NCBI RefSeq assembly: GCF_964204645.1
Contig: NC_134027.1
Span: 14,354,485 to 14,418,484, forward strand
Reading direction: 5' to 3'
Source of the DNA: Tubulanus polymorphus
Lineage: Eukaryota > Animalia > Nemertea
DNA: 64,000 nt
In this document: in pieces, positions 13,336-57,962 of the stretch
Position numbering within the stretch: position 1 is the stretch's first letter
How the letters are laid out: the number at the start of each line of letters is the position of its first letter
Made by a program: the position numbers and the translations under genes
The notes under the pieces: generated by a model
Told to the model about the DNA's origin: nothing
Databases searched by the model: none
The model's input: only the letters and a program-made list of their open reading frames with translations

Positions 13336-13353
13336 TGGTGCCGAAACCCGGGA
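13336..13353 (+). promoter_or_regulatory. Primer-binding site complementary to tRNA-Phe
   Basis: TGGTGCCGAAACCCGGGA is the reverse complement of the 3' 18 nt of animal tRNA-Phe. Confidence 0.9.
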
Positions 13354-14415: not shown

Positions 14416-14524
14416 TTGAGTCAAAAATGACCCACAGGAAGTTCAAACTGCTGTAGAAAACTGTCAATCACTGATATGTCATGAAACAGGCTCTAACTCA
14501 TATGTACCGCCGATTCTTGCTTCA

Positions 14525-16974: not shown

Positions 16975-17149
16975 CTAGCAAAATACCCGTCGTGAATAAT
17001 TGGTTTATCGTTATTCCTAAACACTAAAACTGACGGAAATTGAACATTTTGCCTACACTTGTATATAGAAATCTCCATTATAGTCGCTAATGAGATTCTT
17101 AAGAAATAATAGAATTGATAAGTGATAACATTAATTAATTATATACATA

Positions 17150-20100: not shown

Positions 20101-20447
20101 TACAAACGATGATGGAAGAATAATCGCTTGGTCAATATTTTTAGCATTTGGATCTGTACTTAGTGCATCTTTCAAATGTATATACTGCTCGGCACGTAGC
20201 TCCTTTTGATGGTAGTGAAGGTAATTAAGTCTTTTGTTTCAGTTTTTGCGTACATATCTACCCAAAACTGTTGAGACAATGATTTGCAGCGTAATAAAAT
20301 GTTAAATGTATTGGCCCTTTGCATCATTCTGTAAGCATAGAACTCCAGAGCAGTAATTTTTTTATCATTTATGGATTCCCCAGTGACAGGGTTAAACCGC
20401 GGCACATGGAAATGGTATCCATCATCTCCATGGGGGAAGAGCAGAGG
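17150..20447 (-). pseudogene. Helitron RepHel, 3' part (HUH Rep and Pif1-like helicase), frameshifted
   Basis: PDLFITFTCNPKW, VEWQKRGLPHAHIL, YVCKYICKGSD, DAPGGTGKT, WDE, GDFRQTLP, TINKAQGQT, HGQLYVAFSRV. Confidence 0.95.
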
Positions 20448-20494
20448 TGTGTGGAGACCACGAATTGATATTGTATTATACCTATAGAATACCT

Positions 20495-30912: not shown

Positions 30913-31528
30913 TTGAGATAAAGAAAATGAAATAAAGATGAAGAATTAAAATATGTTTAAAATATATCATCCACTTATATTACCGGCTTAAAGAAAGGAC
31001 AATATTATAAGACAAGCACGAACCAGAACTTGTTGCTGGGTCAATACGACAAGTTAACAAAGCATTCTCATAGTACACTATATACAGTGGAACATTGTTT
31101 CAACGAATTTCTAGGCACCAGAAAATGTGTCTTACCCATGATTAGTCGAAACATATTTCGTATTTAAGACAACATTTTAGGGTTGTAATAAATCATTATA
31201 TCTCTTGAGAAAGTTCTTTTAACGATTTTCTACTGAAGTAATAAGTGATTCAATGACAACAAATATACACACATTGCACATGAATAATACACATTCATTT
31301 AACCCTCTCCTATCGCAAATATAGTTTGTTTAATTCAAGTCATTAGTAATAGGGGTAATGGGCTTTCAGATCAAAGGTCGAACGGTCGAGCTCATTAAAA
31401 AACAAAACATTAAAAGTAATTTAAAACTATAATATATTTTCATAACCGTGTGTATTTTATATTATAACTAAATATTTATTCTAAGATATCAATAATTTAA
31501 AAAGCATATTGTATTAAATCAATTGGTC

Positions 31529-31942
31529 GCTCCACTTCGCTACCGCTCCGCTCCGCGACCAATTGATTTATCTACAATACACAAATTCATATAATCAAAT
31601 ATATTCAAATAATAATAATTATTCTATTGTTCAACTGAAATACACACGGTTATGAAAATATATTATAGTTTTAAATTACTTTTAATATTTGTTATTAATG
31701 AGCTCGACCATTCAACCTTTAACCCGAAAGCCCATTGCCCCTATTACTCTTAAAATATTCATATACATGAATAACATATAAATCATTGAACTTCTAAAAT
31801 CAATTTTAATAAAAAATTTAGTATTAAAATGGAAGCAAATAAGTACTACTGTCCAACATGTAATATCAATATAGATAAATCCCAAAAAGCAAGACACAAT
31901 AAAACTAAAACACATTTAGAGAATAAATTGAAACTAGAATAT
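31529..31942 (+). repeat. Left TIR of copy B (414 bp)
   Basis: Near-identical reverse complement of 50975-51388; includes the polB upstream region and first 38 codons. Confidence 0.93.
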
Positions 31943-32032
31943 TTACAGTTATATTCAGAACAGTTAACAAAGGCAAAGAAATTTATTGAATTATGGAATA
32001 ATGATCCAAATAATGAACAATACGTTGAGTAA
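31829..32032 (+). CDS. Chimeric 67-aa ORF: pPolB N-terminal zinc finger fused to the HNH C-terminal tail
   Basis: Residues 1-38 match the start of the 51088 ORF; the rest (LQLYSEQLTKAKKFIELWNNDPNNEQYVE) duplicates 33906-33995. Confidence 0.6.
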   Translation: MEANKYYCPTCNINIDKSQKARHNKTKTHLENKLKLEYLQLYSEQLTKAKKFIELWNNDPNNEQYVE

Positions 32033-32874
32033 TTTGATATCAAGGATCCGATGTTTATACTAGAACATGATTCTATTTGAACCTATATACATTCTATGTA
32101 AAGAGCTATGGAATAAATCTATAAATTCACAGCTGTTACAGCCGTTACTATGACGCCGAGACATTATGACTCATAATATTACAAACGTGTAGAGAAAATT
32201 CTAGAAAGGTGTGCTGGAACTCTGAATAGAGATGACACGTCATAATCAGAAACGTGTAGAATATTCTAGAAAAGGTGCGCCGGAACCAGATGACGTGGCA
32301 TAATCAACGACGTGTCATTCTAGAAATCGGCCCGGAAATGAACAGACGCTGTAATATTGTGCTCAGGATATTCTATCTATCGAAACGAAATTAGGAGTTT
32401 ATAGTTTACAATTATAAATCTAAATGTAAGTACTGTTTGTTGTAGTTATTAGGGCTATTAAATATGAAACCTTTAGATATATTTAAGTGTATTTAGTATA
32501 TCTTTTAGATGGCTAGAGTTGCCGCTAATATCTTTTAGATTAATAAAACGCCATACGCATCAAGAAGTGATAGAGAAACTCAAGATACTCTTTCTGACTG
32601 AGGAATCAACAGCAATGGATATCGAACCAATAGAAATTAGTACAAGAAACACAAGAATCGCCAAAAGATCGACGAAGAAACTATATAAGAATTTCAAAAA
32701 CATTAAGACTCCAATGATTAAGTTTAACATTTGTTGATGTTGTTAAATATTTACCGGCAATTGAAAAAATGTTTGTAATTATAAATTGTATTTATAGAAA
32801 TCAAATGATGTATTGGAAGAAACGGCCGAACAACTTGTATAATGTATTGTGTAAATCTGTTTGGTGAATTTTTA

Positions 32875-33225
32875 TGTTCGGTCGTTTCTATTCATTATGT
32901 AAATATAATTATGATTAGCGCATGCGCATTGATCAAAAGCGCGCACGAATGCGCGGTTTGCTCAGTGGTATGATTTAGATATTTCATGTCGGTTGTTTCT
33001 ATTTACGTAATGAATATATAATTAGGATTAACGCATGCGCATTAAGCAAAAGCGCGCATGAATGCGCGGTTTGCCTAATGCGAACACGTTTAGATATATC
33101 ATGTCGGTTGTTTCTATTTACATAATTATATATTCATTATGTAAATATAATTATGATTAACGCATGCGCATTCATCAAAAGCACGCATGAATACGCGGTT
33201 TGCTCAGTGGTATGATTTAGATATC
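32875..33225. repeat. Three ~115-bp tandem repeats with CGCATGCGCA cores
   Basis: Unit (ATGTCGGTTGTTTCTATT...GATTAACGCATGCGCATT...AAAAGCGCGCATGAATGCGCGGTTTGC...TTTAGATAT) repeated 3 times. Confidence 0.85.
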
Positions 33226-33341
33226 AAGGAATCGAAACAACTTATCAAAAGCAGCGAGGAATGAAAAAGGATGACGTTGGTCGAAGAAATGGAAGAGGAT
33301 TCTAAAATATTAACCGATTTAGTAAAAAATACGTATAATAA

Positions 33342-33995
33342 ATGGAACCAGAACAACCACAAATTATCAATATTACAAATAACACTGGTGTTATAAATAT
33401 ATATTACAAGAAGTGTTCTAAGTGTGAATTAGATAAATTAGCTTTAACAGAATTTAGTAAGCGTAAGATTAGCAAAGATGGTTTTCAATATTGCTGTAAA
33501 ACTTGCACTAAACTATATACTAAACAATATCGAGAAGATAATATAGAACATTATAATTATTTTATGGCAGAATATATGAGAGAAAGATATCAAACAGATC
33601 TTAATTTTAGATTGAAACAATGCTTAAGATCTAGATTAACACAATTATTCAACAAAGAAACACATTCAGAAACACTATCTAATTTATTGGGTTGTTCAGA
33701 TGAATTTCTCAAATCATGGATTATATTTCAATTCGATGATAAAATGAATATAGATAATTATGGGGATTATTACCATATTGATCATACGTTACCGATTTCT
33801 AAATTTAACATGAATGATGAATACAATAAAAAACTTATTTGGAATTGGAAGAATTTAAGACCTTTAGAAAAGAAGGAAAACATAATTAAATCTAATAAAC
33901 TAGATTGACAGTTATATTTAGAACAGTTAACAAAGGCAAAGAAATTTATTGATCAATGGAACAATGATCCAAATAATGAACAATACGTTGAGTAA
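33342..33995 (+). pseudogene. NCLDV-type HNH endonuclease, copy B (premature TGA at 33906-08)
   Basis: KKCSKC/CCKTC and HIDHTLPISKF...NLRPLEKKENIIKSNK; the frame continues past the TGA to ...NEQYVE*. Confidence 0.8.
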
Positions 33996-34319
33996 TTTGA
34001 TATCAAGGATCCGAAATGACTTATCTAGACAGTTATAATTACTGCTCCTAATAGATAAACAAAAGTAGTGAGATATCAAATAGATTTTAAATAAAAAGTA
34101 TTTAAAAAACAATAACTTCAACAAGCTTGTGAATTCTATTATATTTTTAATATTTTCTTTTCAAAAAAATACTTTATATCACAAATAAAAAATACTAAAA
34201 AAACAATAACTAATACTAAAATTCTTTACCTTTAACTAAGCTAGTATTAATCTAAAGAGATACTGGTATCATTTGAAGAATACTTATAATATTTTTTTTG
34301 CTTTTTTTCTCTAATATAA

Positions 34320-34922
34320 ATGTCAAAGAAATCTAATAAGAATAGTATTGATATTAAAAAAACATTAGATTATTTAGGTATTAGTGATAATAAAGATACA
34401 GTTGTTTCTAATTCTATTCAAGTTAATAACAATATAGATTAAGAATACTATTTATATTGTAAGCATCATCTAGAACTATTGATTGCCGGTGGAAAAACTA
34501 ATGAGTTTTTAAATAGAATCATTACTTTTCAAGAAATAGACTCTATGAAACCAGATAAAGTAATAAAATATTTTAAGATTTATGAAGAAGCTCGATTAGC
34601 TAGAATAAATGATTCTATTTCAGATGGTATTGTCAAATGTTATTCTAAGTTATGTAACCAGTTAATACCAATTGATGATGAAAATAAATTATATAGTGAT
34701 TTAAAAAATGACTACTTAGTTATAACTGAATTACAAAAATGGGTTGGTTATGCTTCATTCCAATTAGGATCGGTTATGACATTAATTTCTACTGGCGTCA
34801 TAACATTTTCGAACATCAAGCCTATGGAATATAAATCAGGCAAGAACGAAACAGATGTACTACAACCAAACGTCGAAACAGAAAATGAATCAGAACAAAA
34901 ATTAACTAAAATAAATGAGTGA
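34320..34922 (+). pseudogene. Ortholog of 5477-6067 with one in-frame stop near 34440
   Basis: TAAATG start at 34320 is in frame with ORF 34479-34922. Confidence 0.75.
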
Positions 34923-35283
34923 TGGAGTTAAGAAAAAGGCTAGATCCGAGAAACAAATTAAATGGGCAAGAGAATTAGGTAAAAGATCTTCAGAATTAAA
35001 AAAAGCTGAGAAAAAGAAATTAACTGATATAAATGAATCACAGACTTTATCTGATATTAATTCAAATAATAATCCATCTAATTCTTCTAATAGTGGAAGA
35101 AATAATTACTTATATATTACAATTGGGTTAATCACAATTATTATATTATCCGGCGTAATATATAAATCAAAATTCAAATCTGATGATAAAGATGATTCCA
35201 ATAACAATAAACCTATCATTCCAGAAAATAAGTCAAATCCTAAAACCATTGGAAATAACCCAAGATTATTATTAATGGATTAA
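34915..35283 (+). CDS. Small basic single-TM protein, copy B
   Basis: Ortholog of 5108-5467. Confidence 0.75.
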   Translation: MSDGVKKKARSEKQIKWARELGKRSSELKKAEKKKLTDINESQTLSDINSNNNPSNSSNSGRNNYLYITIGLITIIILSGVIYKSKFKSDDKDDSNNNKPIIPENKSNPKTIGNNPRLLLMD

Positions 35284-35289
35284 AAGAAG

Positions 35290-38138
35290 ATGAAAAAAGA
35301 ACAATATTTAAGAGATTTATATTATAACCCAGAAAGTGAAGTATCATATTCTAACGTTGCAGAATTATGGAATAAAATTAAATCTGATAATAGTGATGGT
35401 GCCGTACGGCACCCACATGGTGGTATAAAATATAGTGAATTAAAATCATGGTTACAAAATCAACCAACATATCAAATCCACAAGAAAATGGATAAAACTT
35501 ATTTAACAAGAAAAGTTATGGTTTCATATATTGATCAACAATGGCAAGCAGATTTAATTGACATGAAGAACTTAGAGGAATACAACAAAGGATATTTCTG
35601 GATATTAAATGTTATAGACATATTCAGTAGATACGCATGGTCAATTCCAATCAAAAATAAAACTGGAATAGAAGTAACAAATGCTTTTAAATCTATATTT
35701 AAATATATCGATGTGTTAGATGATTTAGTGAAAGGTTATAATAATTCTAAACATAGTTCTATAAATATGAAACCTATACAAGCTAGAAAAGAAGATAATT
35801 CGGAAATAGTTTGGAATAATTTATATGGGGCGTTTGTTACACACGATTTCGGTGAACCTAAATTTAAAATAGGACAACACGTAAGAATATCTAAATATCG
35901 AAAAACATTTTAAAAGGTTATACCCCAAATTTTACTGAAGAAATATTCAAGATTAAAAAGATAATATTAACTAAACCTTTTGTTTATAAATTAGAAGATC
36001 TAAAAGATGAACAAATATTAGGTTATTTCTATGAACAAGAATTATCACTTGTACCAAATCCAGATGAAATAGAATACAAAATAGAACCAGAAAGAAACTT
36101 TCCATGATGGGTTTCTGTGTAATTGTTTCTGTTTCATTCACCCAACTCGCTGTCAACAAGGTATATTTCTAAAAGGAAATATACTGCGACAGGTGGTTTT
36201 GCAAAGTCATTAAAAATCAAGATCCTATTGTATCTAAGGATACAATTATTCCGATTTTGGAGAGAGAGAAGTCATAAAGAATGAATAAATTAATGAAGAT
36301 TACAAAATCGGAAGTAACAAACGAACAGTTTAAAAGAGGAAGCACCCGTCGCGATAAAATGAAGATTTAAATATTACAAAATCATTATGAAAAACGAAAT
36401 GAAAAGAGACAAATGCTACCGTTGATAGTATTCACGTACAAATTGTAGAATGAGAATAGAAAATTTAATTGAATACAAGTTCCGAGAAGAGCAAAGAGAT
36501 TTAGACAATCAATTCGGCGGCTTGAAATAAAGAAACTGCTTAAAAAATGAATAAACTCGAATGCAAGATCTTTGCTTTCGAATAATTTGTTAATTACAAG
36601 GGTAGACCTAAGGTTCATATAAATCTATATTTTTGAATTTTGAAATCAGGGGATCTAAAAATAGTATTCATCATTACGGGACGTCGATTCAGAAATTAAT
36701 TTTTCAGGGAAGAGCCGATCAGCCTTCCAGAAAGGGAATGCGCATCATCCGTGAGTGTCGCAAAAAATTATCTCATTGCTAATTAAAGTTGAAAAATAAC
36801 ATGTACGTTGTTTTCTGAATACTAAAAGATTCTTGATTTTATTTGTGTTCTGTCTACTTAATTGCGGAAATCCGATGTATTTGCAGTACTGGGAACAATA
36901 AAGTATTGAATAAAGTAACAATTAAGTATATTTGATGAGTATCAATAAAGTATATTTGAACTTGAATTTGAGCCCACTAGGTGGTGGTATTGGAAGACAC
37001 CAGGTGGTTCGATCAACTTAATATGCTCCAGCGCCGTGGCGCTGTCGCAAAAAGGCGATTCTCGATATAAATAGTAATGGGTTTTCCCCGCGGGATACCC
37101 GCTTTGGGAAAGGCACCTGAATCGATGCTACGAGTTCGAATCCCAAAATGTAGACGTAATTTATTATTCTTTGAAATAAATTCTTAGAATTTCTATTTAT
37201 GATAGGATGTGCAGGTTTTGATTTAGTAATGATGTTAATAAAAGTTAACCTCTTAAGGTATTGTTTTCTATCTATTATTTGTGACGGATTAGTTTCGATG
37301 CTCCTCACAACCCGCCCCACCACGTGTCACTTATTCACGGACACGCGGATTGTATCATTTGTAATAGGCCTACCACATGAAAGAGTCAATGGCCTACCGT
37401 AGAATAGTAGGGCCTACCGATCACGCTATGTGCGATGAAAGTAGTGTTTGAATAAAACAAATTTTTAATGAAATAAACATTATTTATCATAATTAATCAA
37501 TAGATCAGGTGCCGCATAAATAATTGTTTGTTTCGTGAAATTCATACAAAACTTTGCGACTTCGTCATGTCTTGTGACCCTGAAAATACTAGAAGAATCA
37601 TCGGTAAGCTTATAAAACGGCGAGGTCAACATAGTAACAACAACTTCGGGGATTGAAAAAAAAAACTCGAAAGAATTATTTCTTATACTGATGAGTTATA
37701 CTGATGGGGAGTAGCGACCGTCATTGACACCGGTTATTTATCCATTCACTATCAAATGTGACGAGCCCAATAAATGATTGCGCATAGATTCGGCCTCTCA
37801 GCATTTAGCACAGCAGTTCCGAGAAGTGTTAAGACCGATCAGCGCGCGCGCTATCTAAAACCGGTGCTAGTACGATCAATATCTACAGGTATATACGTGT
37901 TCAGTATTACACAGCGAGTACCAGTATGTTGATCGAGCGTCGTCGTAGCAACGCGCTAGACAGCGGCTGGAACTAGCGAGTAACGTTAATTATCTTTTAA
38001 CCAAATTAGAGGACTTATAACCATCGGAATCAAATATAAACCAAGCTGCACCATCTACATCAAGTAGAGAATACCTGTGTGAAATTACAGAATTGTCGGT
38101 CCACCCAAACAGCTTAAATCGTGTCATAAACAAACATC

Positions 38139-38186
<48 letters not shown>

Positions 38187-38353
38187 TGACGACGATGCCA
38201 TAGATGGGTTCGTCTGACGACGAAACCCATCAAAAAGTATTGAAAACAAAAACTCTTAAAGGAAAAAAGTATTCTTTGGTGAAATATAAAGGATATGATG
38301 ATAAATTTAATGAATGGATTTTATCTAGTAAAATTAAAAGAATAAATGAATAA
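35290..38353 (+). pseudogene. rve integrase-chromodomain, copy B: catalytic core deleted, frameshifted and interrupted by a HINE
   Basis: Joins FKSIFK directly to YIDVLD, losing the QFDEGKEF and IERCN motifs present in copy A. The chromodomain is split at 36086/38232. Confidence 0.88.
36087..38231 (-). mobile_element. Non-autonomous Helentron-associated (DINE-1/HINE-like) element
   Basis: On the minus strand it is inserted in a T-run and shows a 5' hairpin GATGGGTTTCGTC..GACGAACCCATC, a (GTCT)n microsatellite (38142-38186), and a 3' subterminal IR GAAACCCATC followed by a short stem-loop; no TSD. Confidence 0.8.
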
Positions 38354-38957
38354 AGATTTATTTATATTTGAACCGCATAATATGTTAGTTACTGGAGTAA
38401 CCAATTGTGGTAAAACACATTTCATATTAGACTTGTTAGAAACTATTTATAAGAATCATTTTGATAATATAATATTATTCTGTCCTACTTATGAAATGAA
38501 TAAAACATATAATAGAGATATAGTTAAGATAAAAAAGTTTATTATATTAGATCCTAAAACAGTAAAAGAAAATTTAGATAATTGTATAAAAATAGCAATT
38601 GATACTTATAAAGGATCAAATACATTATTCATTGTAGATGATTGCGCAAATTTACATGATTCAAAAGTTAGAGAAAGTGAGTTATGTTATTTAGCTTTCT
38701 CTGGGAGACATTTTGGGATAACAACATGGGTTTTAAATCAAAAATATAATTCAATTGTTAAAGACTTTAGGGAGAATATAAGATTTCTAGTTTTATTTTA
38801 TAACAAAGATAAAAAATCTATGCAACAATCATTGGAAGAAAATCAAATTATACCTACTGAATTACATGATGAATATATGAATAAATTAAAGAATAATAAA
38901 GGTTCAAAATTATTACTGAGACTACAATTTCCCTATGAATATAAATTTATAAAATAA
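38346..38957 (+). CDS. A32-like packaging ATPase, copy B
   Basis: GVTNCGKT, LFIVDD and GRH motifs; intact. Confidence 0.9.
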   Translation: MNKDLFIFEPHNMLVTGVTNCGKTHFILDLLETIYKNHFDNIILFCPTYEMNKTYNRDIVKIKKFIILDPKTVKENLDNCIKIAIDTYKGSNTLFIVDDCANLHDSKVRESELCYLAFSGRHFGITTWVLNQKYNSIVKDFRENIRFLVLFYNKDKKSMQQSLEENQIIPTELHDEYMNKLKNNKGSKLLLRLQFPYEYKFIK

Positions 38958-38974
38958 CTATTTGTGTACCTATG

Positions 38975-39290
38975 TATTAGATACCCTATTAGATACCCTA
39001 ATACCTGATACCCCATTAGATACCCTAATACCTGATACCCTAATACCTGATACCCTATTAGATACCCTAATAAATATTATTTATACAATTTTCAACCAAT
39101 TTATTTTTATTTTTTCAACTAATATATGAATAAGTTTGAAAATAATAAAGGTTATTTATTATTACTGAGGTTTCAATTTCCATATGAATATCAGTTTAGA
39201 AAATAAGATATTTTATGTATTAGATTGTATTAGATATGTATTAAATACGTATTAGATACGTATTAGATACGTATTAGATACCTTAATACT
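38975..39290. repeat. Short GATACCCTAATACCT / TATTAGATAC repeats plus a duplicated ATPase 3' end in the convergent intergenic region
   Basis: Directly visible; the equivalent array is at ~3100-3400 in copy A. Confidence 0.75.
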
Positions 39291-39340
39291 TAAAACCCCC
39301 TTTTTTATTTACTATAATTTTATAAAATTTTCAACGTTTA

Positions 39341-40291
39341 TTACTTTTTGAGTGTTAGATAATCACTTTCTGAATCACTTTCATCATCACTCTCCAATTC
39401 ACTATCAAACCCTAACAATTTTCTCAATTTCTCTACCGAATCTTCTTCTAATTCTTCATTATTTTTATACTTATTCTTCGTCTTTTTTACCGCATCATCA
39501 ATAGTTGTTTCAATGTTTTGCTTACTCATCCTTTCTATCACATCATCAATAGTTTCTTCTTTATGTTTCATAGAATCTTTATTATCAATATGCTTATCTG
39601 TAACTTTATTTTCATTATCATCTTTATTAGTGTTTGTTCCTAATATTTCATTTACAGTGTTTGATCCTAATATTTCATTAGCATCGGTTAAATCTAATTC
39701 ATCTTTATTAGGTGTTGCTAATAATAAATCTTCATATATATTTTCACCATTTACTTTTTTATTTGAAACAAATTTTGTAACATATCTAAATGGGTGTTCT
39801 ATAAATTCTCTTAAACCAACACGTTCTATAACATTAGTAATATGTGAATTTGTATTCATATGTTTATTCCAATTTGATGGAGCGTTTGAAAATTCACCTT
39901 TACAATAATCACAATAATTTCTATTTTTACTAACATTTAATATTATTGCATTATTATATGTAGAAGGTATTACATTATTAGATGTAGAAGGTATTATATT
40001 ATTAGATGTAGTAGGTATTACATTATTAGATGTAGTAGGTATTACATTATTAGATGTAGAAGGTATTACATTATTAGATGTAGAAGGTATTACATTATTA
40101 TCAATTACATTACTTAAATTATCAACAACTTCACTTTTATTATTATCGATTTCTATTAGTTTAGTTTTATAAATTTTGAAAATAGGATCAAATATCAAAG
40201 CTATATTACAAGGTTATACATAATATAAACCATCATTATTTTCATGTGTATCGATGTATGGAATATGTTTATATACTTTACCTCCTTCCAT
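39341..40291 (-). pseudogene. Repeat/zinc-finger protein with acidic tail, copy B (stop at codon 26)
   Basis: TAAATG start at 40291 (MEGGKVYKH...). TAA replaces the ATA codon seen in copy A; in frame with 39341-40198. Confidence 0.8.
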
Positions 40292-40323
40292 TTATTATAT
40301 AGATTTTTATTAAAGTAAAAATT

Positions 40324-41571
40324 TTAATACATAACACTATTTAATTGAGAATTTACAATATTTAATTGCGCGTCAGATATAATATAAATGTGCATTTTAA
40401 AATTTTTGATTCCTTTATTTTTTGTCATGAATAATTGTATTCCATCTTTAGTGTTCTGTAGTTTTTTTCCAGAACCATGTAATGAATTATCCTCTGTTGT
40501 TCTAAAATCTAACCATAATGCATATTTATTACCGGTATAATAATCAATTTGATTAATGTTACAATTTTCAGATGATTTTACCTTTTCATTCATAAAATGT
40601 TTTCTAATTTCTGGCCATTGATCTATCATTCTCATTCCTTGACAAAATATTCTATTTGCTATTCCTTCGATAGTTATTTCTACTTTTGTTATTTCAGGAT
40701 TATAATAATTATCAACATTTATTGCGCCATTAGTATATGTTGCAATTGTAAAAAATATTAATATACCTTTAATAGATCTTCTTGGGAAGTTAATATTCTC
40801 ATTAATTATTTCATCATTTGCATTAATAGTTACAGTTTTAAATTGATCAATATAATCATATAATAATGAAAATCCTTGATTGTATTGAGTTTGAATTATA
40901 CTTGAAATATTTTCATCAGTTACTGTATCATATTCTAAACATATATTCGATAATTTATAACCCATATCTTTAACAACGCCAGATAATACAATTTCATTTA
41001 CAGGAGCAAATGTTATCTCAAATATAATATTTTCTTGAATTACATATTTATATAAAGGTGCATTATTATTTATCAATTCAAAGTCTAATGGAATTTTATA
41101 TTTGCTTCCATAAATCTTTTTTATCAAATTATCTGTGGCACGAGTTACTATTGCGTCATTAGCTCCCGATCTTAATTTATTATGGTTTTCCGATTGAATA
41201 CCCTGAAATATCATATTATTTCTATTTTCTTTAGTTAACCATAAATCTTTATAATGCATAAATAAATTATAATCATCTAATGAGAAAACTGTTTCTGGAC
41301 AAATCTTTATAGTTAATTTTTTAATCAAATACCTTCCAACATTATCAACAACATAATTATTATTATTACCGATTTCTTTTATATCGGCTGATAAATAAAT
41401 ACTATTTGGAACGTAAAAAGTATTTTGTGTTAATCGAGGAATTCTAACATATAAAGTTTCATCAGGATTAATATTAGAAGGGTTATGAGTAATTATATGA
41501 TGTGATCTTTCTGCTTTAATAGCATTAGATATTCTAGAAATCTTAGAAGGACTTATATAACTCCCACTCAT
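40324..41571 (-). CDS. Putative double-jelly-roll major capsid protein
   Basis: Intact 415-aa beta-rich ORF (LYVRIP, IYLSADI, IKKLTIKI, YKIPLDF, IIFEITFAP, LSNICLEYD, ITKVEITIEG, LWLDFR) of the expected size in a pPolB/ATPase element. The fold is inferred. Confidence 0.7.
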   Translation of the reverse strand: MSGSYISPSKISRISNAIKAERSHHIITHNPSNINPDETLYVRIPRLTQNTFYVPNSIYLSADIKEIGNNNNYVVDNVGRYLIKKLTIKICPETVFSLDDYNLFMHYKDLWLTKENRNNMIFQGIQSENHNKLRSGANDAIVTRATDNLIKKIYGSKYKIPLDFELINNNAPLYKYVIQENIIFEITFAPVNEIVLSGVVKDMGYKLSNICLEYDTVTDENISSIIQTQYNQGFSLLYDYIDQFKTVTINANDEIINENINFPRRSIKGILIFFTIATYTNGAINVDNYYNPEITKVEITIEGIANRIFCQGMRMIDQWPEIRKHFMNEKVKSSENCNINQIDYYTGNKYALWLDFRTTEDNSLHGSGKKLQNTKDGIQLFMTKNKGIKNFKMHIYIISDAQLNIVNSQLNSVMY

Positions 41572-43077
41572 TTATTTAACAAAAAAATTAATTATTAATT
41601 TTTTATTATTTTTTTCTTGATATCTTTTTGATATCATATTCACTAACCCAAAAATAATAGCACTTACAACTGTAATTAAAAATAAAATAATATGTTCAGC
41701 AGCAAAGTTAATAATGTTTCCTGCAGATTTCAATATAAAACCAACATTTGATGCAATAATTCCAGGTAAAGCTGCAGCAGATTTTTTAGATAGTTCCCAT
41801 AAATATTTTGCTAATTTCTTTAAACCATCTTTAACTTTATCTTGTATAGAATTATTATCATTCGGGGGTTTATCTGGTTTATTGGGAGTAGGAGTAGATT
41901 TCAAAGCATTTGATATAGCTAAACCTATTGTTGTAAATAACATAGTTACAGCTGTTAGAATTGAAAGAATTGTTATTCCTTCAAACTTAAATAATAATTT
42001 TATTCTATCTTTCAATGATATTTTAGAATCTGGTTTTATTAGATATCTTTTAAAAACATCTTTTAATCTATTAATATTATAATCATATGATTTTAATAAT
42101 AATTTAATTTCTTCTTTTTGTAATTCTATGTTATATTCTAAATCATCTTCTTCTTTTTCTAAACGTAATTCTTTTTGCCTATATTCTATTTCATCAAGTA
42201 ATTGATTATCTAAATCAGACTTTAATTGTTCTATTTCTTTATTTTTATCAGTTAATTCTTTTTCTAAAGTTCTAATTTTAAAATCTCTTATACTTTTATC
42301 ATGCGCAATTTTATCAGATGCAAGTCTTATACTAATAATTTCTCTAATTGCTGTATCAGAAAATATATCTAAATCTTCTAATTCTTGATCTGTTGCGTCA
42401 AGTAATCCATTCGGTAAAAGTTTTTCAATTGGAACTTTATTTGATTTAGGTTTACTAGTTTTGGAAGTTTTATTCTGTTCAGAACTTGTTTCTGGTTCTA
42501 AATTATTATCGATTGTTTCAAATAATTTATTGATTCTTTGTTTAAATACTCTTTCATTTTTAATAATTTCTTCTTGTGTTACATCTTCTATTTCATTACT
42601 ATTTCTTATTATTTTAATTCTAGATAGTAATGAGTCAGACTTAAGCAAAGTTGATTCTGCTTATATTTTTTTTTGTTTTTTATAAGAGATATCAATATAA
42701 TAATCATCTTTCAAACGATAATAATATTCACCATCTAAAAACTTTAATTCTTGTACTAAAAGTCTAGCGCCTCTATCATTTATATTATATCCAGATTCTT
42801 TAAATACATGTTGAAATTCATACATAAATTCATAATTTTCTAAACCTGGGTCTAAATTTTCAGTAGGTATTCTCGATCTAATTCTTCTATCATTTTCTTC
42901 TGTTGATGGGACTTTAGAACCACTATCTGCTAAATTAGAATTATATGCTGATTCATCATCATTATCAATATTAGTTTCATTAAGATTAGCACCTGCATCA
43001 TTATAATCATCATCAATATATCCTTCATTATTATTTCCCATGTCATCCAATGGAATATCTTCTCCACCTTCTGCCAT
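41572..43077 (-). pseudogene. ~500-aa protein with acidic N-terminus, coiled coil and C-terminal hydrophobic/amphipathic helices (one in-frame TAA at 42661-63)
   Basis: ORFs 42661-43077 and 41572-42648 are in the same frame, 12 nt apart; two or three TM-like segments. Confidence 0.7.
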
Positions 43078-43093
43078 TTACATAATAAAAAAA

Positions 43094-44391
43094 TTAAAAT
43101 TTGAAATATAATATTCCTCCTATAACAATTCCTATACAGGTTATAGCTAATTTAGTATTTTCATGGGATTTATTATCATCATTTAGTTTAATTATTTCAT
43201 GTTGAATAATATCAGTTTTAATATTTTCTGATGTATTATAATCCGGTTTAGAATCATTATGCAATTTAATATTTTTAGTTTTAGTTTCTGTTGATTGAAT
43301 GTGTTTTTTATTTTTTTCACCTTCCATTAATTTTGGAGCAGTAATTATCTTTTTATTTATATCATTCAATCCAAATGAATTATTTATTGTTGCAGTTTTA
43401 ATTAGATTATTATAACCAATTATATTTCCCATCTTCAATACTAAATCATTAGAAATAATTAATAGATTAGGGCCTATACAATAATTTAATCTAATATGTG
43501 ATTTATCTAAATAATTTTGATATCTTACAATGTTTTCTGGAATCGATCTATTTTTATCATTATGTATAGAATCTTCAAATAAAACTTTAAATTGTTTCTG
43601 CGCATCGAATGAAGTGTTATCATTTCCAATTATTGGGGATCTTGTTTCAACTTGCGCACCTAAAATACATATCAAATAAGTTCTAATTGATTGATTTATT
43701 CTTTGTATACCTGATTTTGTAAAACCTTCACCATTTTCTAAAATGAAATTAACCCAACCATTATTATTATCAATTTTATAATTATGATAAGCTGAAATTC
43801 TATGCATATAATCAATTCTTTTTATTTCAAACTCTTCACCTACACCTTGCAATTTACCATGCGCTCTGAAATCGGAATTAATATTTATATTAAATTCATT
43901 ACATATTTTATAAAACTTAGATAGATTAATATTATTATCCAATTGTTTAAAATATTTAGACCCGGGTAAAGGACATTCTAATTCATTTAATATTATTCTG
44001 ATTTGAAAATATGTGTGAAATCTGAATATTGTGTGAATAATTTTTAATCAGAATACTTCAAATTTTTATCTAAGTTATTCAAATGATCATTCCAACTAAT
44101 TCCACATCCTGTTGTTGCACAATAAACAGCAAAATCTAATTGGTTCTGCCAATATTTCATATTAGATTTTACTTTATATATATGGTATTCATCTCGAGTA
44201 AAAGTAACTTCATATGTATTAAATATATTTTCCATTTTAGAAATAAAAAACTGTGATTCAGTAACATAAATTTCTAAATTAGTTAATGAATTCAAAACTA
44301 CATTTCTATATGTAATATTTTTCTTAAAATCTATTGCAGGAATATTATATTTAATTGATTTATTATATTGGAAAGCTTTTGGAAACCCCAT
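43094..44391 (-). pseudogene. ~430-aa uncharacterised protein with C-terminal TM anchor (frameshift near 44044)
   Basis: YWQNQLDFAVYCATTGCGIS followed by a shifted frame IFRFHTYFQIRIILNELECPLPG that runs into ORF 43094-43942; ends LAITCIGIVIGGILYF. Confidence 0.7.
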
Positions 44392-44407
44392 TTATATAAT
44401 TAAAAAA

Positions 44408-44842
44408 TTAATAATCAACTAATTCTTTTAATAATTTATCTTGTTCTTCAACTGTTATTTGGCCATTTAAACTTATTATATAATCTAGTGTGTTCTTTAA
44501 TTTATTAATTTCTTTTATATTAGTTTTAATTTTTTCTTTATTACTTTTTATATTTAATTTTGAACTTATACCAGTTAAAACACTTGAACTTAATCCTAAC
44601 ACACCAATTGATATAGCTAAAGGTGTTAATGGACTGAATATTGCTAGAAATGTTATTACAGAACTAATTGTAACCGAACCACTTATAATCAAATAATATA
44701 TAATTTTACTTTTTAAATATTTTTTCTTTTTAAGTTTTAAGTCACTTTCAAATTCTAATATTTGTTTTTCTAAATATATTTTTAATTTAGTTTTATTTAT
44801 ATCATGGGGAATAATATCAATATTATCAACTTTATCTTCCAT
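44408..44842 (-). CDS. Two-TM hairpin protein flanked by helical segments
   Basis: IIYYLIISGSVTISSVITFLAIF / LAISIGVLGLSSSVLTGIS; intact, with a TAAATG start. Confidence 0.7.
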   Translation of the reverse strand: MEDKVDNIDIIPHDINKTKLKIYLEKQILEFESDLKLKKKKYLKSKIIYYLIISGSVTISSVITFLAIFSPLTPLAISIGVLGLSSSVLTGISSKLNIKSNKEKIKTNIKEINKLKNTLDYIISLNGQITVEEQDKLLKELVDY

Positions 44843-44862
44843 TTATTTAGAAAAAAAAATTA

Positions 44863-45285
44863 CTAATTAGTAAATTTATATGCTACAAATATAACAATAA
44901 CTGTTCCGCCTAAAATCCATATTATTTCATATTTCTGTTGTTCTTTACTTGGGGTATAATAATCTGATAATTTAGGTTTGTATAGATGTAATTTTTCTTT
45001 ATTTGTTACTGCGTTATATAAACTCATTGCATCATCAACTGATTGAAAATCTCTATGTGAAATCTTCTGATCATATAATTCTTTATTGATGTAATCCATA
45101 TAGTTTTGTCTCTTTTCTCTATATTCTTCTGCAGCTTTATTGTATTTCTCTAACGCTAAGTTATGTCTTCTTTGTTCTCCTAATGAACTATTTTTATCAA
45201 TATGTTTAATTAAATATCCGCCACCAGTAAATGCTAAAGCGTTAACAATTGCCGATCCTATAATAGTTATAATTGCAGAAGCCAT
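44863..45285 (-). CDS. Small membrane protein with N-terminal hydrophobic helix and C-terminal TM
   Basis: MASAIITIIGSAIVNALAFTGGGYL...IIWILGGTVIVIFVAY. Confidence 0.7.
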   Translation of the reverse strand: MASAIITIIGSAIVNALAFTGGGYLIKHIDKNSSLGEQRRHNLALEKYNKAAEEYREKRQNYMDYINKELYDQKISHRDFQSVDDAMSLYNAVTNKEKLHLYKPKLSDYYTPSKEQQKYEIIWILGGTVIVIFVAYKFTN

Positions 45286-45309
45286 TTATTTAGCAAAAAA
45301 ATTATGCAT

Positions 45310-45531
45310 TTATATGGGAGGAATATATTTTTGTTTTTCTAAATAATCAATAGTTAAATTAGATAAAGTAACTGTTAATGTTAATTTTAAAATATCATTT
45401 ATATAAAATCTATCAACATTAACACTTCCCATTTTGAATACTTTTTTTAATACCATTGAATAACCAACAGTTCCAACTGATAGTAATGCTCCATTATATA
45501 ATCCAGTTATTATCCACTTATTATCACTCAT
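45310..45531 (-). CDS. 73-aa hydrophobic protein
   Basis: Intact ORF carrying the conserved T-run/TAAATG start element. Confidence 0.65.
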   Translation of the reverse strand: MSDNKWIITGLYNGALLSVGTVGYSMVLKKVFKMGSVNVDRFYINDILKLTLTVTLSNLTIDYLEKQKYIPPI

Positions 45532-45635
45532 TTATTTATCAAAAAAATTACTATCATCAAAATATTTAGTTATCTTAGTGATGATTAATTCAACATTTAT
45601 TTCATTACTAGTTTCAGATGTATATATTTCAATTA

Positions 45636-45887
45636 TTATTCTTTAATATCATCGATGATAAAATCTACATCTAATTCATAAAATCTTAAAGATTCTCTAA
45701 TTAAATTAGTAATCTTTTCTACATTTAAAGTTTCTTTATCTATTGTTGTTTCATACTCAAATGTTGTTTCATTTGAAAATGTAATATTTTTGATGTGTGT
45801 AATTACATCATTAACGTTAAATTTCATTTCTTTCTCACGTTTAAAATCAAATCCAAAACATATACTACGCCCAACAGTTATATTCAT
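45636..45887 (-). CDS. Small uncharacterised protein (possibly shortened by a stop)
   Basis: T-run/TAAATG start; coding-like sequence continues toward ~45550. Confidence 0.55.
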   Translation of the reverse strand: MNITVGRSICFGFDFKREKEMKFNVNDVITHIKNITFSNETTFEYETTIDKETLNVEKITNLIRESLRFYELDVDFIIDDIKE

Positions 45888-45903
45888 TTATATAATGAAA
45901 AAA

Positions 45904-46659
45904 TTACTCTCTACATCTTATAACTAATTCATAAATTACAGGAAAGTTATTCAAATCAATTAAATAACCATTATGATTTCTTACTTCTAACTTAAAATTG
46001 TTAAATTGAGGAATGCATGGTTTGAAATCACATTCAGCTAAATTATAATTTATTTGAGTTCCAAATTGTTTAACATTTTTCAGCGGTAAAATATTTAATA
46101 TACTAGAATTACAAATTGTATCTTTAGTTGCTTCGAAAATTTTTTTAGGCTCGATTAAATTGCAATAAATATAAAAGTGTGTAAAAGGTATTATATTTGT
46201 ATAAGTATCAATATTTGAATAATGTCTATCCGAAAGAATTCCAAACAGTTTAGCTAAAGGTTTTCTTACTAGAAATCTATGTTGTTCATTAGTTAACTTT
46301 ATTCTTATTTTATTCGAACTATCACTTTTGATGAATTTAATTTCAAATCGAGCAGCTGAGCCCATTTTTAAACGAGCTCTTTTATTAATTTCTTGCGCTA
46401 ATGTTTCTAAATTATATAATCATGGTTTTTAGATAAAGATGAAACCATTTATTCAAATTTCTATCATAAATTTTAAAAGCTAAATGATCAAGACTTTTAT
46501 TCGATATATTATGAAAAGAATTACATAAACTTATATTAACTAATTTTAAATCAACACAATTCTTAAATTCTCTATCTAATTGAACTAGTAAATTATGTGA
46601 TTTATAATTTGTATGTCTTCTAGAATCTACAAATATTCTGTATTCTTTTAATTTACCAT
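45904..46659 (-). pseudogene. Putative minor capsid (penton-like single jelly roll), frameshifted
   Basis: N-terminal YRIFVDSR...LLVQLDREFKN and C-terminal FYIYCNLIEP...ILNILP...FNNFKLEVRNHNGYLIDL...YELVIR match the Polinton minor-capsid pattern. Confidence 0.7.
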
Positions 46660-46676
46660 TTATTTTACATATTTTC

Positions 46677-47030
46677 TCATTCGAAATCTATTTCATGGTG
46701 CCCTTTTTCATTCTTACCTTTGTATACGAAATAGAAATCTCCAGAACATAATTCTTCTAAATCTTCACTTGATAATCTATGAAATCTATCAGGTAAATAT
46801 GTTCTGAATTTAAATGTATTTCCTTTTAATCCTTCATATTCTAAGTGTATAACTAATTTATCTCCATAGTTATTAGTAACTGTAACAATATTTGTAATTA
46901 GATATTTCTTATGAATTGTTAATTCTGTTAACTTTTTGAATTTATAATCTACAGATTTTACATTTGTTATATCTATAATTCTATCTAGAAATAATTTGTT
47001 GTTCTCACTGTGCGCTTGTTTACTCTCCAT
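46677..47030 (-). CDS. 117-aa beta-rich protein next to pPolB (possible OB-fold ssDNA-binding protein)
   Basis: FKKLTEL...YLI...TNNYGDKLVIHLE...YLPDRF...FVYKG; intact. Function is inferred. Confidence 0.55.
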   Translation of the reverse strand: MESKQAHSENNKLFLDRIIDITNVKSVDYKFKKLTELTIHKKYLITNIVTVTNNYGDKLVIHLEYEGLKGNTFKFRTYLPDRFHRLSSEDLEELCSGDFYFVYKGKNEKGHHEIDFE

Positions 47031-47062
47031 TTTAATAACATATTTTTAATAAAAAAATTTGA

Positions 47063-50000
47063 TTAACACGTTAGAATTCTTTTCATTATCTCGTTCTCTT
47101 TTGTTTCTTCTCTTTTAAATTTTAAGTATTCATCTAAATTGCAACCATAAGCAACTGTATGAATTCCATCATCTAAAATATATCTTTTATCATCAAATGG
47201 GTTTAGACTTATCTTTTCAATTTCTTCAATAAACATTTCATGATCTTCAGATCTTAAACATCTCATCTTATGTTTTCTAACTTCTTCATTGAATATACAA
47301 TTGATGTAATCTTTGAAATGAATATTCTTTTCTACTACACTTTTGGTTATTCCTTTTAACTTTTTAGCTTCATGTTCTTTAGTTTTATATGAATACATTT
47401 TAGATCTAATACCGATGAACTCTATCATTTCTTCACCACCTAATTCATCTTTGAATTTATCTTTTTTATTATCATTGCTAAACAATTCATGATCTTTAGG
47501 ATAGTTACTAAAATCAAAATGATGTTTTAATGTTTTTAAATCATCAGTTATGTTATCAGTTTTTATCTTTAATATGTAACTGTCGGTATCACAATATAAT
47601 ATTTCTATATGTTTTTCTCCAAAAAGTGGTTGTAATATATTATAATAGAATTCATACATTAGTAATTTTGATAATTCTAAAACTGAAGCGCCAACATAGA
47701 TTGGTTTATTAAATTTCATTGATGTTCTTCTCATCTTAACTGCGGCTAAATTTTCATCAAATATTCTGTTACCAATGAACTTAGGATATGTTTGTAAATG
47801 TCTAATTCTTTTACCATTACTAACTAACTCAATATCATTTCTATTTCTAATATTTTCACAAGTCTTACCATAGAATGCATTATTCATTAACTTGAAGAAA
47901 TCTTTCTCGAAATCAGTTTTAGCTTTAGTTCTCTGTTTGGTGTTAAAATCTATATATTTTTCTAACCACTTAGATTGACTGAATGAAATATATCTATGTA
48001 CTTTTTTTAGAATCATTCCTTGTTTTAGATAAAACTTTAACATTCTATAATGTACTACATAATTATATTTATCTTTCTGAGTTACCATTAACTTTTCTGT
48101 ATGAATATGATTTTCGGGTTTAATTCTTTTTTGGTAATTTGATAATTCTTCATGAGTTACAGTTTTATGTTCGGGACAATAAGCTAGATTTCTAGATTTA
48201 AATTTAATATGTTCAGGATATTCTAAGTCTACAACAAAGAAGTAACCAGTATCTGAATCATCTGCAATATCTAGAATTCTTTTCTTCCAATCAAATTTAT
48301 CATTATTTTCATTCGGTAAAACTTCAGTTAATTCAAATACTCCATAAGGTTGTGGTTCCATCATTGCCCAACCATACAAATTATTTGCATCTATATATAA
48401 TAACTTATATCAAGGATTATCATTTACATTGAAATATCTATCACCTAATACACCTGAAACTCCTCCTCTTATAGATTTTTCAAATAATAATAATTGATCT
48501 ATATTTGTTAACAAATCCATTTTTATATCTGTAAATTTTAATCCACAATCCCATGTTAAACCTGGTGATGAATAACAATGACAAGGATCAATGTTAAAAT
48601 ATTTTAGGTTTACATCTCTAAACCTTTCGAATATATCGGTTAATAATAATACATCTGATTTTAAATATAAATCTACTAATTGCCCATGATTTTCTATTTT
48701 GAAATGATTCCAAATATTCAATGTTCTATTATATACTTCATCTTTAACATATTCATTTTTTAATTCATCATAAAATTGTTCTTTCAATAATTCAGTTATG
48801 TTAAAATCATTATGATTTTTATAGAAAGAATATGGAATTGCTCCTTTATATCTCATTAATTGGAAATCATCATTATTTGGATAGTGTTGTTTTAATATCT
48901 TTAATTCATCATCAACTAATGATTTTGATAAGTTATCTAATGAACTATTTAAAAATCTATATGAATCTATAAATCTTAGACACCCAAGTTGGAATGATAT
49001 ATAATTCTCAGATGTTTTAGCTAACATTCTAAATTTATAAGTTGGTATTTTATCTTTTGATCTATTTGAATTTAATATTTCTATTTCATTATTGATTTCT
49101 TCTATTTTATGGCATAACTGTTTGATGAATAAATGTGCATCATATCCTGATAGATTATGAAATATAACTGGTACAAAATTAATTTTCTTAGCTTGTAAGT
49201 TACAATTCTCATGTGCAGCGCCTCTAAACTTTCCGTTCAAATGATCATGGTCTCTTACGTTTTTATCTTTATAATTAAATATCTTTTCACAATAATAACA
49301 TTTATCTGCAAACGCAAATTCTTCTTTATCTTCTTCTGTCATTATAATTTCTATATTTGTATTCAATAATTTACTTAATCTTATTTCATATTCAATTAAT
49401 AAGTCACAAAAATGATTGATAACATTTTCATTTCTGTAAAGATAATATTCACTTTCAATTAGTTCTGGATAATCAGATTTTATATATAACCCGAAAGCAG
49501 CAGCTGATTGATGAATCTATTTAATTGTATTTGTTTTTGGTGGTTCATCTGAAAAATCATTTTCATTAGAATTTAATTTCTTTCTTTTATAATATATTTC
49601 TTTTCTATCTTGATCAGTTAATTCTTTATTTAATGATTCAAAATCTCCATATATTACAAATGGTACTTTATTTTTGTAATCATATTTTTTGAATTCTAAT
49701 ATTTTATCCTTTTCATTTGGTAAAACTAATTTACAATAATCATGATTTTCACATAATTGTTTATGATTTAATAATGTACTTTCATTACTGAATCTATGTA
49801 AACATTTTCTACAAAGATATATTTTATGGTGATCATTTTCTGATTTGAAAAATAAATCGATTTGTTTAATCCACATATAATGATTCTCATAATATAATAT
49901 ATCTATAATATCATTTGAATCATAATCTTTTGATAGATATAAAGGTTCTAATGTATAATGTTTTATATTGTTACCTTTTGTATTTGGTAATTTGATTAAA

Positions 50001-51088
50001 TCAAATACATTTATTCTTAAATTATTATCTCTTTCTATTTTTGGGATGTTTTTAATTCTAACAGGATACTTATCTATCTTATAATTATTTTCAAATGGTT
50101 TATAATGAGTTAATCTACAAATATTATAAGTTGCAGGATGTAAACAACTTATTATAGTCCATAGTAAACATTTATCATCAAAATTTTGTACATTTATTAC
50201 AGCATTAGTTTTAAATGGTAGTTTAATATAACTTGTTCCATTTATACTATCATCTTTATAATATGATAAATTATTTTCATCAATTGGTTTTGATTTAGTT
50301 AACTTATTATATTTTGTGTTATAAACATGTAAAGTCATAAATATTATTTCATCAAATATTAAACCAGATCCTTCAAAATATTTCTCTTCTATTTTAGTTT
50401 TTACTTCATTATAACATTTATCTAACTTATCATCTATATGTTGTTTTGAAATAATATGTTGTGAATGAGAATTTATATTATATATTGGTTTATCTTCAGA
50501 TTTTATAAACTTTACTTTAGAAGATATACTTATTTTAGGATATTCAAAATCTGTAATTATTTTTATTATTTCTTTCATATTTTCTAAATGTTTTTTATTT
50601 TCTTCTAATGTTTTTCCTTTATGAAATTTAAACTCGATAGCTGCTGGACCAATATCACTTTTAAATGCTTCGGTTATCTCTATATCTTTTTTATTATCTA
50701 ATGAATTAATATAATTTCTTACATCTTCCATGTATGGTCTTTTATTGTTTAATTCATTTTTTATGCTTTTAATTGTCTTCTGTTTCTTATCGTTATCATT
50801 ATCAAAATAATCTTCACCTAAAATATCATTATTCTTATTTCTAATATGACTTATAGATTTTAAATGTTCTTTATAATATCTTTTATCACTGAATGATTGA
50901 TTACATGTATCACATTTATATGTTTCTTTTTCATTCTTTAATTCTTCTAATTTAGTTTCTAATATATCATCTTTATATTCTAGTTTCAATTTATTCTCTA
51001 AATGTGTTTTAGTTTTATTGTGTCTTGCTTTTTGGGATTTATCTATATTGATATTACATGTTGGAGAGTAGTACTTATTTGCTTCCAT
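47063..51088 (-). pseudogene. Protein-primed family B DNA polymerase (~1340 codons) with N-terminal Zn fingers, OTU-like protease and inserted endonuclease-VII domain; two in-frame stops
   Basis: Three ORFs lie in one frame, separated by TAG (49517-19) and TGA (48410-12). Motifs: EGSG, NFDDKCLLW...NHY, YGDFES, CYYC..VRDHDHLNGKFRGAAHENCN, FHNLSGYD, YLKSDV, YIDANNLYG, KLMNNAFYGK, YCDTDS. Confidence 0.95.
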
Positions 51089-51388
51089 TTTAATACTAAA
51101 TTTTTTATTAAAATTGATTTTAGAAGTTCAATGATTTATATGTTATTCATGTATATGAATATTTTAAGAGTAATAGGGGTAATGGGCTTTCGGGTTAAAG
51201 GTTGAATGGTCGAGTCCATTAATAACAAATATTAAGAGTAATTTAAAACTATAATATATTTTCATAACCGTGTGTATTTCAGTTGAACAATAGAATAATA
51301 ATTATTATTTGAATATATTTGATTATATGAATTTGTGTATTGTAAATAAATCAATTGGTCGCGGAGCGGAGCGGTAGCGAAGTGGAGC
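50975..51388 (-). repeat. Right TIR of copy B (414 bp)
   Basis: Reverse complement of 31529-31942; ends GCGGAGCGGAGCGGTAGCGAAGTGGAGC. Confidence 0.93.
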
Positions 51389-51479
51389 AAAATATAGATG
51401 TTCCAAAAAAATATAGATGTTCCATTGCCAGAAAAACCCAGTATATTAGGGGTTGACTGAAGTAATTATCAAAAAGATC

Positions 51480-57934: not shown

Positions 57935-57962
57935 TGTTAAATCGGTTGTCTCTTTTCAGAAA

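Follow-up and report, generated by a model that had tools for sequence, protein, structure and literature searches.

A 64,000-nucleotide stretch of the genome of the nemertean Tubulanus polymorphus (assembly GCF_964204645.1, contig NC_134027.1, positions 14,354,485 to 14,418,484; referred to here as the window) contains, at 31345-51399, an integrated but decayed representative of a Polinton-type element (in the broad sense) that is present in many copies. Nearly all genes of this element and of a clade of its relatives start with TAAATG placed over the start codon, preceded by an A/T core at a fixed distance. This promoter code is solid, while the helper virus and the antiviral role that a preliminary description had proposed from the sequence are hypothetical. 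From the likeness of these signals to those of poxviruses, we consider it rather probable that transcription of the lineage relies on a cytoplasmic RNA polymerase of poxvirus type, provided in trans.

Gene starts in the window were picked from open reading frames (ORFs) and homology. TAAATG was located over the start codon at 13 of 16 starts relative to 22 of 306 internal ATGs of the element ORFs, which bears out the TAAATG elements of the preliminary description, and two further starts, those of pPolB and the small gene F54 (47030), carried TAAAATG. A set of 83 loci with related capsids was retrieved, the metagenome relatives representing 80 of 234 matches. In a quick tree of 69 capsid rows, built without bootstrap and leaving out 15 of the 83 loci as too short, the window grouped with L001-L014 with a Shimodaira-Hasegawa-like approximate likelihood ratio (SH-aLRT) of 99. 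These loci, together with two assigned by partial capsid identity (L037, 48% and L070, 57%), formed a clade set of sixteen.

Across the clade TAAATG was found at 60/67 starts relative to 42/1319 internal ATGs. Outside the clade it was present at 1/50 starts in the fourteen loci below 40% GC (1/17 at 26-30% GC) and at 4/301 starts in the forty-seven GC-richer loci, giving 5/351 for all 61 non-clade loci. Removal of near-duplicate loci left 50/55 clade starts against 1/40 in AT-rich non-clade loci, and insect-type Mavericks had the motif at 0/37 starts (L115-L117 and L119) and 1/9 starts (L118). The element is indeed extremely AT-rich as first described, with 23-25% GC in its parts against 37-38% in the flanks, and TAAATG occurs inside genes at the expected rate, which would suit a motif arising as a by-product of AT-rich, gene-dense DNA. 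The motif was nevertheless kept in clade members of 35-44% GC (9/11 starts and 0/193 internal ATGs) and absent from AT-matched relatives, and it is therefore not a composition artefact. The by-product explanation is refuted by these counts and is given next to no credence. The possibility that the motif is general to nuclear Polintons of similar AT content, which the preliminary description had named as one that would refute its proposal, was examined in the same comparison and was not borne out, 60/67 clade starts standing against 1/50. The TAAATG start motif is a lineage trait and not an effect of composition.

Use of the motif was also observed elsewhere. Six distant capsid relatives outside the clade (L052, L053, L054, L057, L076 and L077), grouped after the motif was seen, had TAAATG at 10/11 starts. 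A viral-database contig (L114, 1-9034, 38% GC) had it at 7/7 ORF starts and encodes pPolB, an adenain fused to an integrase, and a distant ATPase (26%); its integrase grouped with the clade integrases (SH-aLRT 94), and it appears from its sequence to be a second lineage using the same start signal. One clade member, L003, encodes a deoxynucleoside kinase with a TAAATG start (10340-10981, Pfam E 2e-31).

The region upstream of the starts was profiled at 70 clade starts, counting the A of ATG as +1. A second conserved part was present, with A at -18 in 80% of starts (25% at -19), T at -12 in 91% (58% at -11 and 30% at -9) and T at -13 in 72%, positions -12 and -13 being the 9th and 10th bases upstream of TAAAT. 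TAAAT(G) was found over the start codon at 70/80 clade starts, with G or A at +4 in 68 of the 70. T at -12 was present at 44/50 starts relative to 23/79 non-start TAAATG sites, a control that is partly confounded by coding and spacer composition. With a matrix trained on the relatives only, the top 11 of the 799 ATGs of the element were all true starts, and the remaining six window starts ranked 15, 25, 26, 50, 57 and 520.

In vaccinia late promoters TAAAT(G) overlaps the start codon and the 10th base upstream is a conserved T, while vaccinia intermediate promoters have an AT-rich stretch 15-19 nt upstream, according to a review (PMC11980589) from which, rather than from the primary promoter papers, these spacing values were taken. 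The TAAA initiator is read by the viral polymerase itself (PMC12917281). The fixed upstream core of the clade agrees with the vaccinia late promoter to within one base. The two systems are alike in TAAAT(G) over the start codon, in the T about 10 nt upstream and in an AT-rich core, and they differ in that the clade has a single fused A-then-T core with slightly shorter spacing.

A motif acting in RNA or translation, as an in-frame stop guarding the start, as stop-start coupling, or as an overlapping AATAAA of the upstream gene, would draw on the TAA being in frame with the ATG, on the presence of AATAAATG at 31/70 starts and on the few stops that abut the next start. TAAATG was however present at 14/15 divergent genes and at 7/9 genes without an upstream neighbour, and because of the divergent genes the motif is not a product of stop-start coupling. 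Tandem spacers are mostly longer than 10 nt, AA at -5/-4 is absent in 39/70 starts, TAG or TGA would guard as well and yet TAA dominates, and the fixed -18/-12 core is left unexplained, so that an RNA-level role is very improbable. A trans-splice acceptor was ruled out, with G at 1-2% from -7 to -4. Promoters did not fall cleanly into an A-tract and a T-tract class according to gene function; the split was partial, capsid genes having 11 T, 4 A and 3 neither.

TTTTTNT is the poxvirus early termination signal. In the ORFs of 13 de-duplicated clade loci TTTTT[ACG]T was seen 11 times relative to 35.5 expected from synonymous shuffles, and it was below expectation in 13/13 loci. Control patterns gave seen/expected ratios of 0.72, 0.73, 0.91 and 0.84, and an AT-rich outgroup of eleven loci had 24 relative to 27.2 expected. 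The avoidance remained when conditioned on general avoidance of T runs (p 0.005). Read from these coding sequences, TTTTTNT avoidance is a second pox-type trait of the clade. Transcription by RNA polymerase III was ruled out, 553 TTTT runs remaining in clade ORFs.

The same signals could be read by host RNA polymerase II in the nucleus, from an unusual initiator with nearly no 5' untranslated region and with recruitment by a factor of the element such as F27, in which case the pox likeness would be convergent. The element is multi-copy and integrated, and F27, which has a C2H2-like motif, was found in four clade loci and in 0/61 non-clade loci. No TBP or TFIIB match was found in the element or in L003, T is fixed at -3 where AT-rich relatives have A in 80% of 50 starts, and 10-16 nt separate the core from the presumed start site, fewer than for a TATA box (~25-30). 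AATAAA occurs undepleted at 4 per kb on coding strands, equally so in the most AT-rich outgroup loci. Transcription by polymerase II would further leave unexplained the avoidance of TTTTTNT and the use of the motif by L114 with its different capsid module, and we regard it as unlikely.

A cytoplasmic enzyme with a TAAA initiator need not come from a poxvirus, and an egovirus-, asfuvirus- or iridovirus-like nucleocytovirus, or a linear plasmid encoding an RNA polymerase such as pGKL2, could be its source. The pGKL elements are not known to have a capsid or an integrase. Yeast pGKL1/2 resemble the clade as AT-rich linear pPolB replicons, and yeast virus-like elements use a TAAAN initiator and poly(A) leaders (PMC6211774). 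They differ from the clade in an RNA polymerase encoded by the virus-like element and in an ATNTGA box (PMC6211774); no fixed ATNTGA box was seen in the upstream profile of the clade, where G nowhere exceeded 20%. Egoviruses, relatives of poxviruses tied to polintons, are unstudied, and the main text of their preprint holds no promoter data. The deoxynucleoside kinase of L003 may also be counted here, its one viral match, L111, being a contig of 50% GC without the motif. An asfar-like helper, which the preliminary description had considered beside a pox-like one, fits worse, the late initiator of African swine fever virus being TATA with AU leaders (PMC7163114). The T about 10 nt upstream together with TTTTTNT avoidance is the poxvirus pattern, and a non-poxvirus enzyme is accordingly judged distinctly unlikely.

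Under transcription by a pox-type polymerase, the late-type signal of A/T core, fixed spacer and TAAATG over the start codon would be the promoter, and a pox-like cytoplasmic virus infecting the same cell would read it with its RNA polymerase, in the way that giant viruses read virophage promoters. As the element showed no polymerase gene, a helper would supply the enzyme. Transcription would start at the AAA of TAAATG and give non-templated 5' poly(A) leaders, whose added A residues may compensate for the T at -3. Replication with pPolB, packaging and re-integration in the germline would follow, and the lineage would cycle between helper-driven cytoplasmic replication and integrase-driven germline insertion. 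Of the helper dependence first proposed, pox-type transcription is well supported in an indirect way, by a motif that is clade-specific, kept in GC-richer relatives and absent from AT-matched ones, by pox-late spacing and by TTTTTNT avoidance, while no helper was found. The missing adenain, the membrane proteins and the intronless genes, which had been offered as further signs of a helper, are not evidence for one because motif-free relatives share them; families F1, F2, F4, F5 and F7 are likewise common in those relatives.

Several observations weigh against helper-supplied pox-type transcription. In vaccinia, TTTTTNT acts on early genes and late genes ignore it, whereas the clade avoids it in genes with late-type promoters. 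The pattern was not enriched after stop codons (23/88 relative to 27 antisense), and the six distant capsid relatives grouped above showed no avoidance (8 seen and 6.7 expected). The integrase start carries neither TAAATG nor TAAAATG and is the one ranked 520/799 by the promoter matrix. The A-rich part precedes TAAAT by 13-15 nt, a shorter distance than in vaccinia intermediate promoters (15-19 nt). Because the loci of the clade are related to one another, their counts do not represent independent events. AATAAA was seen at 0.97 of expectation in the clade and 0.98 in the outgroup and does not separate the groups. Initiators of the TAAA type are found in yeast virus-like elements as well, and ranavirus promoters contain TAAAT. 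A scan for the promoter pattern gave 27 viral loci, none with TAAATG at most starts (2/5 in the best) and none with clade genes. No helper was named and no poxvirus names appeared among 15 HNH and 38 deoxynucleoside kinase homologues, and no relative was found in capsid and ATPase scans of viral_contigs. The high copy number of the element shows nuclear germline spread, which a cytoplasmic helper alone does not explain.

The element has the Polinton hallmarks pPolB, rve integrase, A32 ATPase and double-jelly-roll capsid. No match to RNA polymerase, TBP, TFIIB or adenain was found in it by Pfam scans, in agreement with the earlier reading that it has no RNA polymerase or adenain, and four adenain queries in tblastn matched L112-L117 and neither the window nor L001-L083. 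It lacks the adenain by which adintoviruses/Mavpol group 1, taxonomic virophages and entomopoxvirus-associated Polinton-like viruses (PLVs) are recognised. The capsid was modelled with AlphaFold2 as a double jelly roll (predicted local distance difference test, pLDDT, 87) and matched the PBCV-1 capsid at E 7e-18. In the structure search the adintovirus entry of BFVD ranked 25 (TM-score 0.56), below capsids of the nucleocytoplasmic large DNA virus (NCLDV) type, and the modelled fold is nearer to these than to the adintovirus entry. The mavirus capsid ranked 41, and the Sputnik-capsid Pfam model had no match in the element and did match L113 (10170-12047), a hybrid contig with a Sputnik-type capsid gene and a Polinton-type pPolB ~38% identical to that of the window family.

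Gene content and literature make it probable that the element is one of the adenain-less animal Polintons that stand outside Mavpol 1/2, near aquintoviruses. Such elements (Polinton-3_NV/N1A_NV-like, and aquintovirus-related ones of Octocorallia, Hydrozoa and Bivalvia) are alike in pPolB, rve integrase, A32 ATPase, NCLDV-like capsid fold and the absence of a protease, and a named homologue came from the bivalve Mactra antiquata. The adenain-less relatives sampled differ in being mostly without the motif, as in the 61 loci mentioned above. One of them, L031, has a 1209-aa SF1-helicase-type protein (9970-13599) replacing pPolB. Clade integrases (L002 and L005) were 40-46% identical to those of adenain-bearing Mavericks (L114-L119) and 24-25% identical to those of L031 and L068, the two non-clade capsid-family integrases in the tree, which suggests an integrase swap. 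Capsid homologues of 55% identity filed under Bartonella sp. assemblies (cluster P0044), on contigs of at most 1.7 kb, are probably carried-over eukaryotic or viral DNA.

PLVs have been found in entomopoxvirus occlusion bodies, and these elements (AHEV_PLV1/2, CBEV_PLV1 and Ca_PLV1) are, like the window element, small animal Polinton-type elements and are proposed poxvirus parasites (PMC11296320). As described there, all four encode an adenain-type protease, which the window element is without, and AHEV_PLV1 and Ca_PLV1 have no detectable integrase, whereas the window element has an rve integrase (PMC11296320). The main text of that paper contains none of the words 'motif', 'TAAAT', 'upstream' or 'transcription' and no promoter analysis; its poxvirus link rests on co-sequencing, while the one proposed here comes from the architecture of the promoters, no helper having been seen. 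For PgVV, Sputnik and mavirus it is established that promoters are shared with the helper (10.1101/2022.07.28.501842, 10.1101/2025.10.09.676808). PgVV/Gezel-14T, mavirus/EMALE and Sputnik resemble the element in having no RNA polymerase of their own and helper promoter motifs before their genes, and mavirus/EMALE also in being integrated in a host genome. They differ in that their hosts are protists, their helpers belong to the mimivirus order and their motifs are of the AAAATTGA or CroV-late type, where the present element has an animal host and a pox-late-type motif. Traits of a virophage lifestyle are present in the element at the level of sequence, namely helper-type promoters and no RNA polymerase of its own among the matches, and if the proposal of a helper holds the element would work like PgVV or mavirus.

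The features of the element, and the second copy in the window, are as follows.

31345-31942, no strand: left terminal inverted repeat, carrying a duplicated pPolB promoter and first 38 codons
32870-33224, no strand: three GC-richer non-coding repeats at ~113-129 bp spacing
33342-33908, plus strand: HNH/endonuclease VII-like gene, TAAATG start, premature stop at its end, clade-specific
34320-34922, plus strand: conserved family F1 gene, TAAATG start, frame broken by an early stop
34915-35283, plus strand: gene for a small protein with a single transmembrane segment, TAAATG start
35290-38347, plus strand: rve integrase with chromodomain, broken by an internal deletion, a frame break and an insertion, the sole gene without the motif
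36085-38231, no strand: foreign insertion of ~2.1 kb inside the integrase, 37% GC, with a nested 0.9-kb piece
38346-38957, plus strand: A32-like packaging ATPase (Pox_A32 E 4e-12), open ORF, TAAATG start
39341-40291, minus strand: F27 gene, clade-specific and frame-broken, TAAATG start, with 24-bp repeats and a zinc finger of C2H2-like type
40324-41571, minus strand: double-jelly-roll major capsid protein of 415 aa, open ORF, TAAATG start
41572-43077, minus strand: family F2 coiled-coil/transmembrane virion-module gene, frame-broken, TAAATG start
43094-44391, minus strand: family F4 conserved virion-module gene, frame-broken, TAAATG start
44408-45887, minus strand: four small genes, F56 (two transmembrane segments), F5 (two transmembrane segments), F7 and F55, all starting with TAAATG and separated by spacers of 20, 24 and 104 bp
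45904-46659, minus strand: family F9, probable minor capsid protein, frame-broken, TAAATG start
46677-47030, minus strand: small F54 gene, TAAAATG start
47063-51088, minus strand: pPolB with a zinc finger and an endonuclease VII-like insert, TAAAATG start, single frame with two premature stops
50975-51399, no strand: right terminal inverted repeat, ending at the hairpin apex
1-8115, minus strand: second decayed copy, inverted, from HNH to part of F27, six genes

The copy at 31345-51399 is dead, with two stops in pPolB, a damaged integrase and frame-broken virion-module genes. Its pPolB matched PF03175 (E 1e-7) and was 29-43% identical to full-length relatives. The HNH gene matched HNH/endonuclease VII (PHROG E 2e-13) and was present in six clade loci and 0/61 others; it had been described as NCLDV-style, and that label was not borne out because 0/15 homologues carry a virus name. 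F9 is taken as a probable minor capsid protein because of its size, position and conservation. No PDB sequence match below E 0.06 was found for F54 or F27, and the structure modelled for F27, of poor quality (pLDDT 45), resembled generic helical repeats only. For the many membrane proteins first reported, transmembrane segments were predicted in 4/17 ORF pieces, and the spacers of 16-25 bp were found at six junctions (16, 16, 20, 24, 16 and 17 bp), the others measuring -8, 6, 32, 32 and 104 bp. An AT-rich block between the convergent ATPase and F27 genes (38872-39335, and 3052-3491 in the second copy) contained short repeats and small palindromes together with a second copy of the ATPase 3' end, and L003 and L005 have palindromes at similar convergence points.

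The fold-back termini of the preliminary description were recovered at the left end, a complete though imperfect palindrome at 31345-31748 (76%, ~200-bp stem, ~400 bp in total) with a folding energy of -114 kcal/mol relative to -27 +/- 3.6 in 100 shuffles (z -24), while the right end is incomplete and stops at the apex. The inverted repeats are 98% identical, 50975-51388 being an inverted copy of 31529-31942. At 51388-51399 the right end halts exactly at the apex of the terminal palindrome, which may reflect either the resolution of a hairpin end or a truncation by chance. Polintons are recognised by inverted repeats starting AG(T) and a 6-bp target duplication; the terminus of the element begins AGT, and the target duplication is not readable because the right end is cut off.

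The second copy has TAAATG at 4/5 checked starts. The two decayed copies had been said to complement each other, and a second copy sharing six genes does exist, yet it overlaps a minority of the element because it covers those six genes at one end only. In the raw DNA reads of run X6 the capsid region was ~800-880 deep, while the three lowest flank bins were 4-8 and most others 12-80. Unrelated flanks before 31345 were found in 1823 DNA reads (agreement 0.33), and 31345 is therefore the true family terminus; read depth over the capsid region and the differing flanks together indicate tens to a few hundred insertion sites. Summed contig depth of the element relative to its flanks was far higher in run X1 than in X2 or X6, and as contig depth is not copy number no inference is drawn from it. 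The Polinton copies are flanked by decayed Gypsy-type remnants (reverse transcriptase, integrase and a Baculo_F-like envelope) and Helitron remnants (Rep and PIF1) at 14104-20501 and 56714-60575, neighbours that, with the bivalve homologue of the capsid, point to an animal host; two short interspersed repeats of very high copy with many different flanks are located at 11538-11683 and 22935-23152.

A larger picture would join these points. Animal genomes would carry a widespread integrated clade of poxvirus provirophages with the full pox code of late promoter and terminator avoidance, silent until an undiscovered invertebrate pox-like virus infects and then parasitising its factory and lowering its yield, and unrelated capsid lineages (L114, L077 and L053) would have taken the code separately, some sharing an integrase lineage. 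Taken as a whole this is a tentative picture and an unlikely one. By analogy with Phaeocystis cultures, which collapsed with or without PgVV, dependence on a helper need not protect the host.

In the literature searched, which lay outside subscription journals, no paper on poxvirus-type promoters in a Polinton was found, and PMC8502044, PMC11131425 and two 2026 preprints do not use the word 'promoter' in their main texts. The sole poxvirus link found in that literature was the co-sequencing with entomopoxvirus occlusion bodies mentioned above. A clade-wide pox-type promoter code bears on how animal Polintons are transcribed and on whether any is a virophage, and it makes helper dependence testable. 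As a sequence screen, the code could sort Polintons into host-read and helper-read lineages, and it would predict pox-like viruses in hosts from which none has been catalogued.

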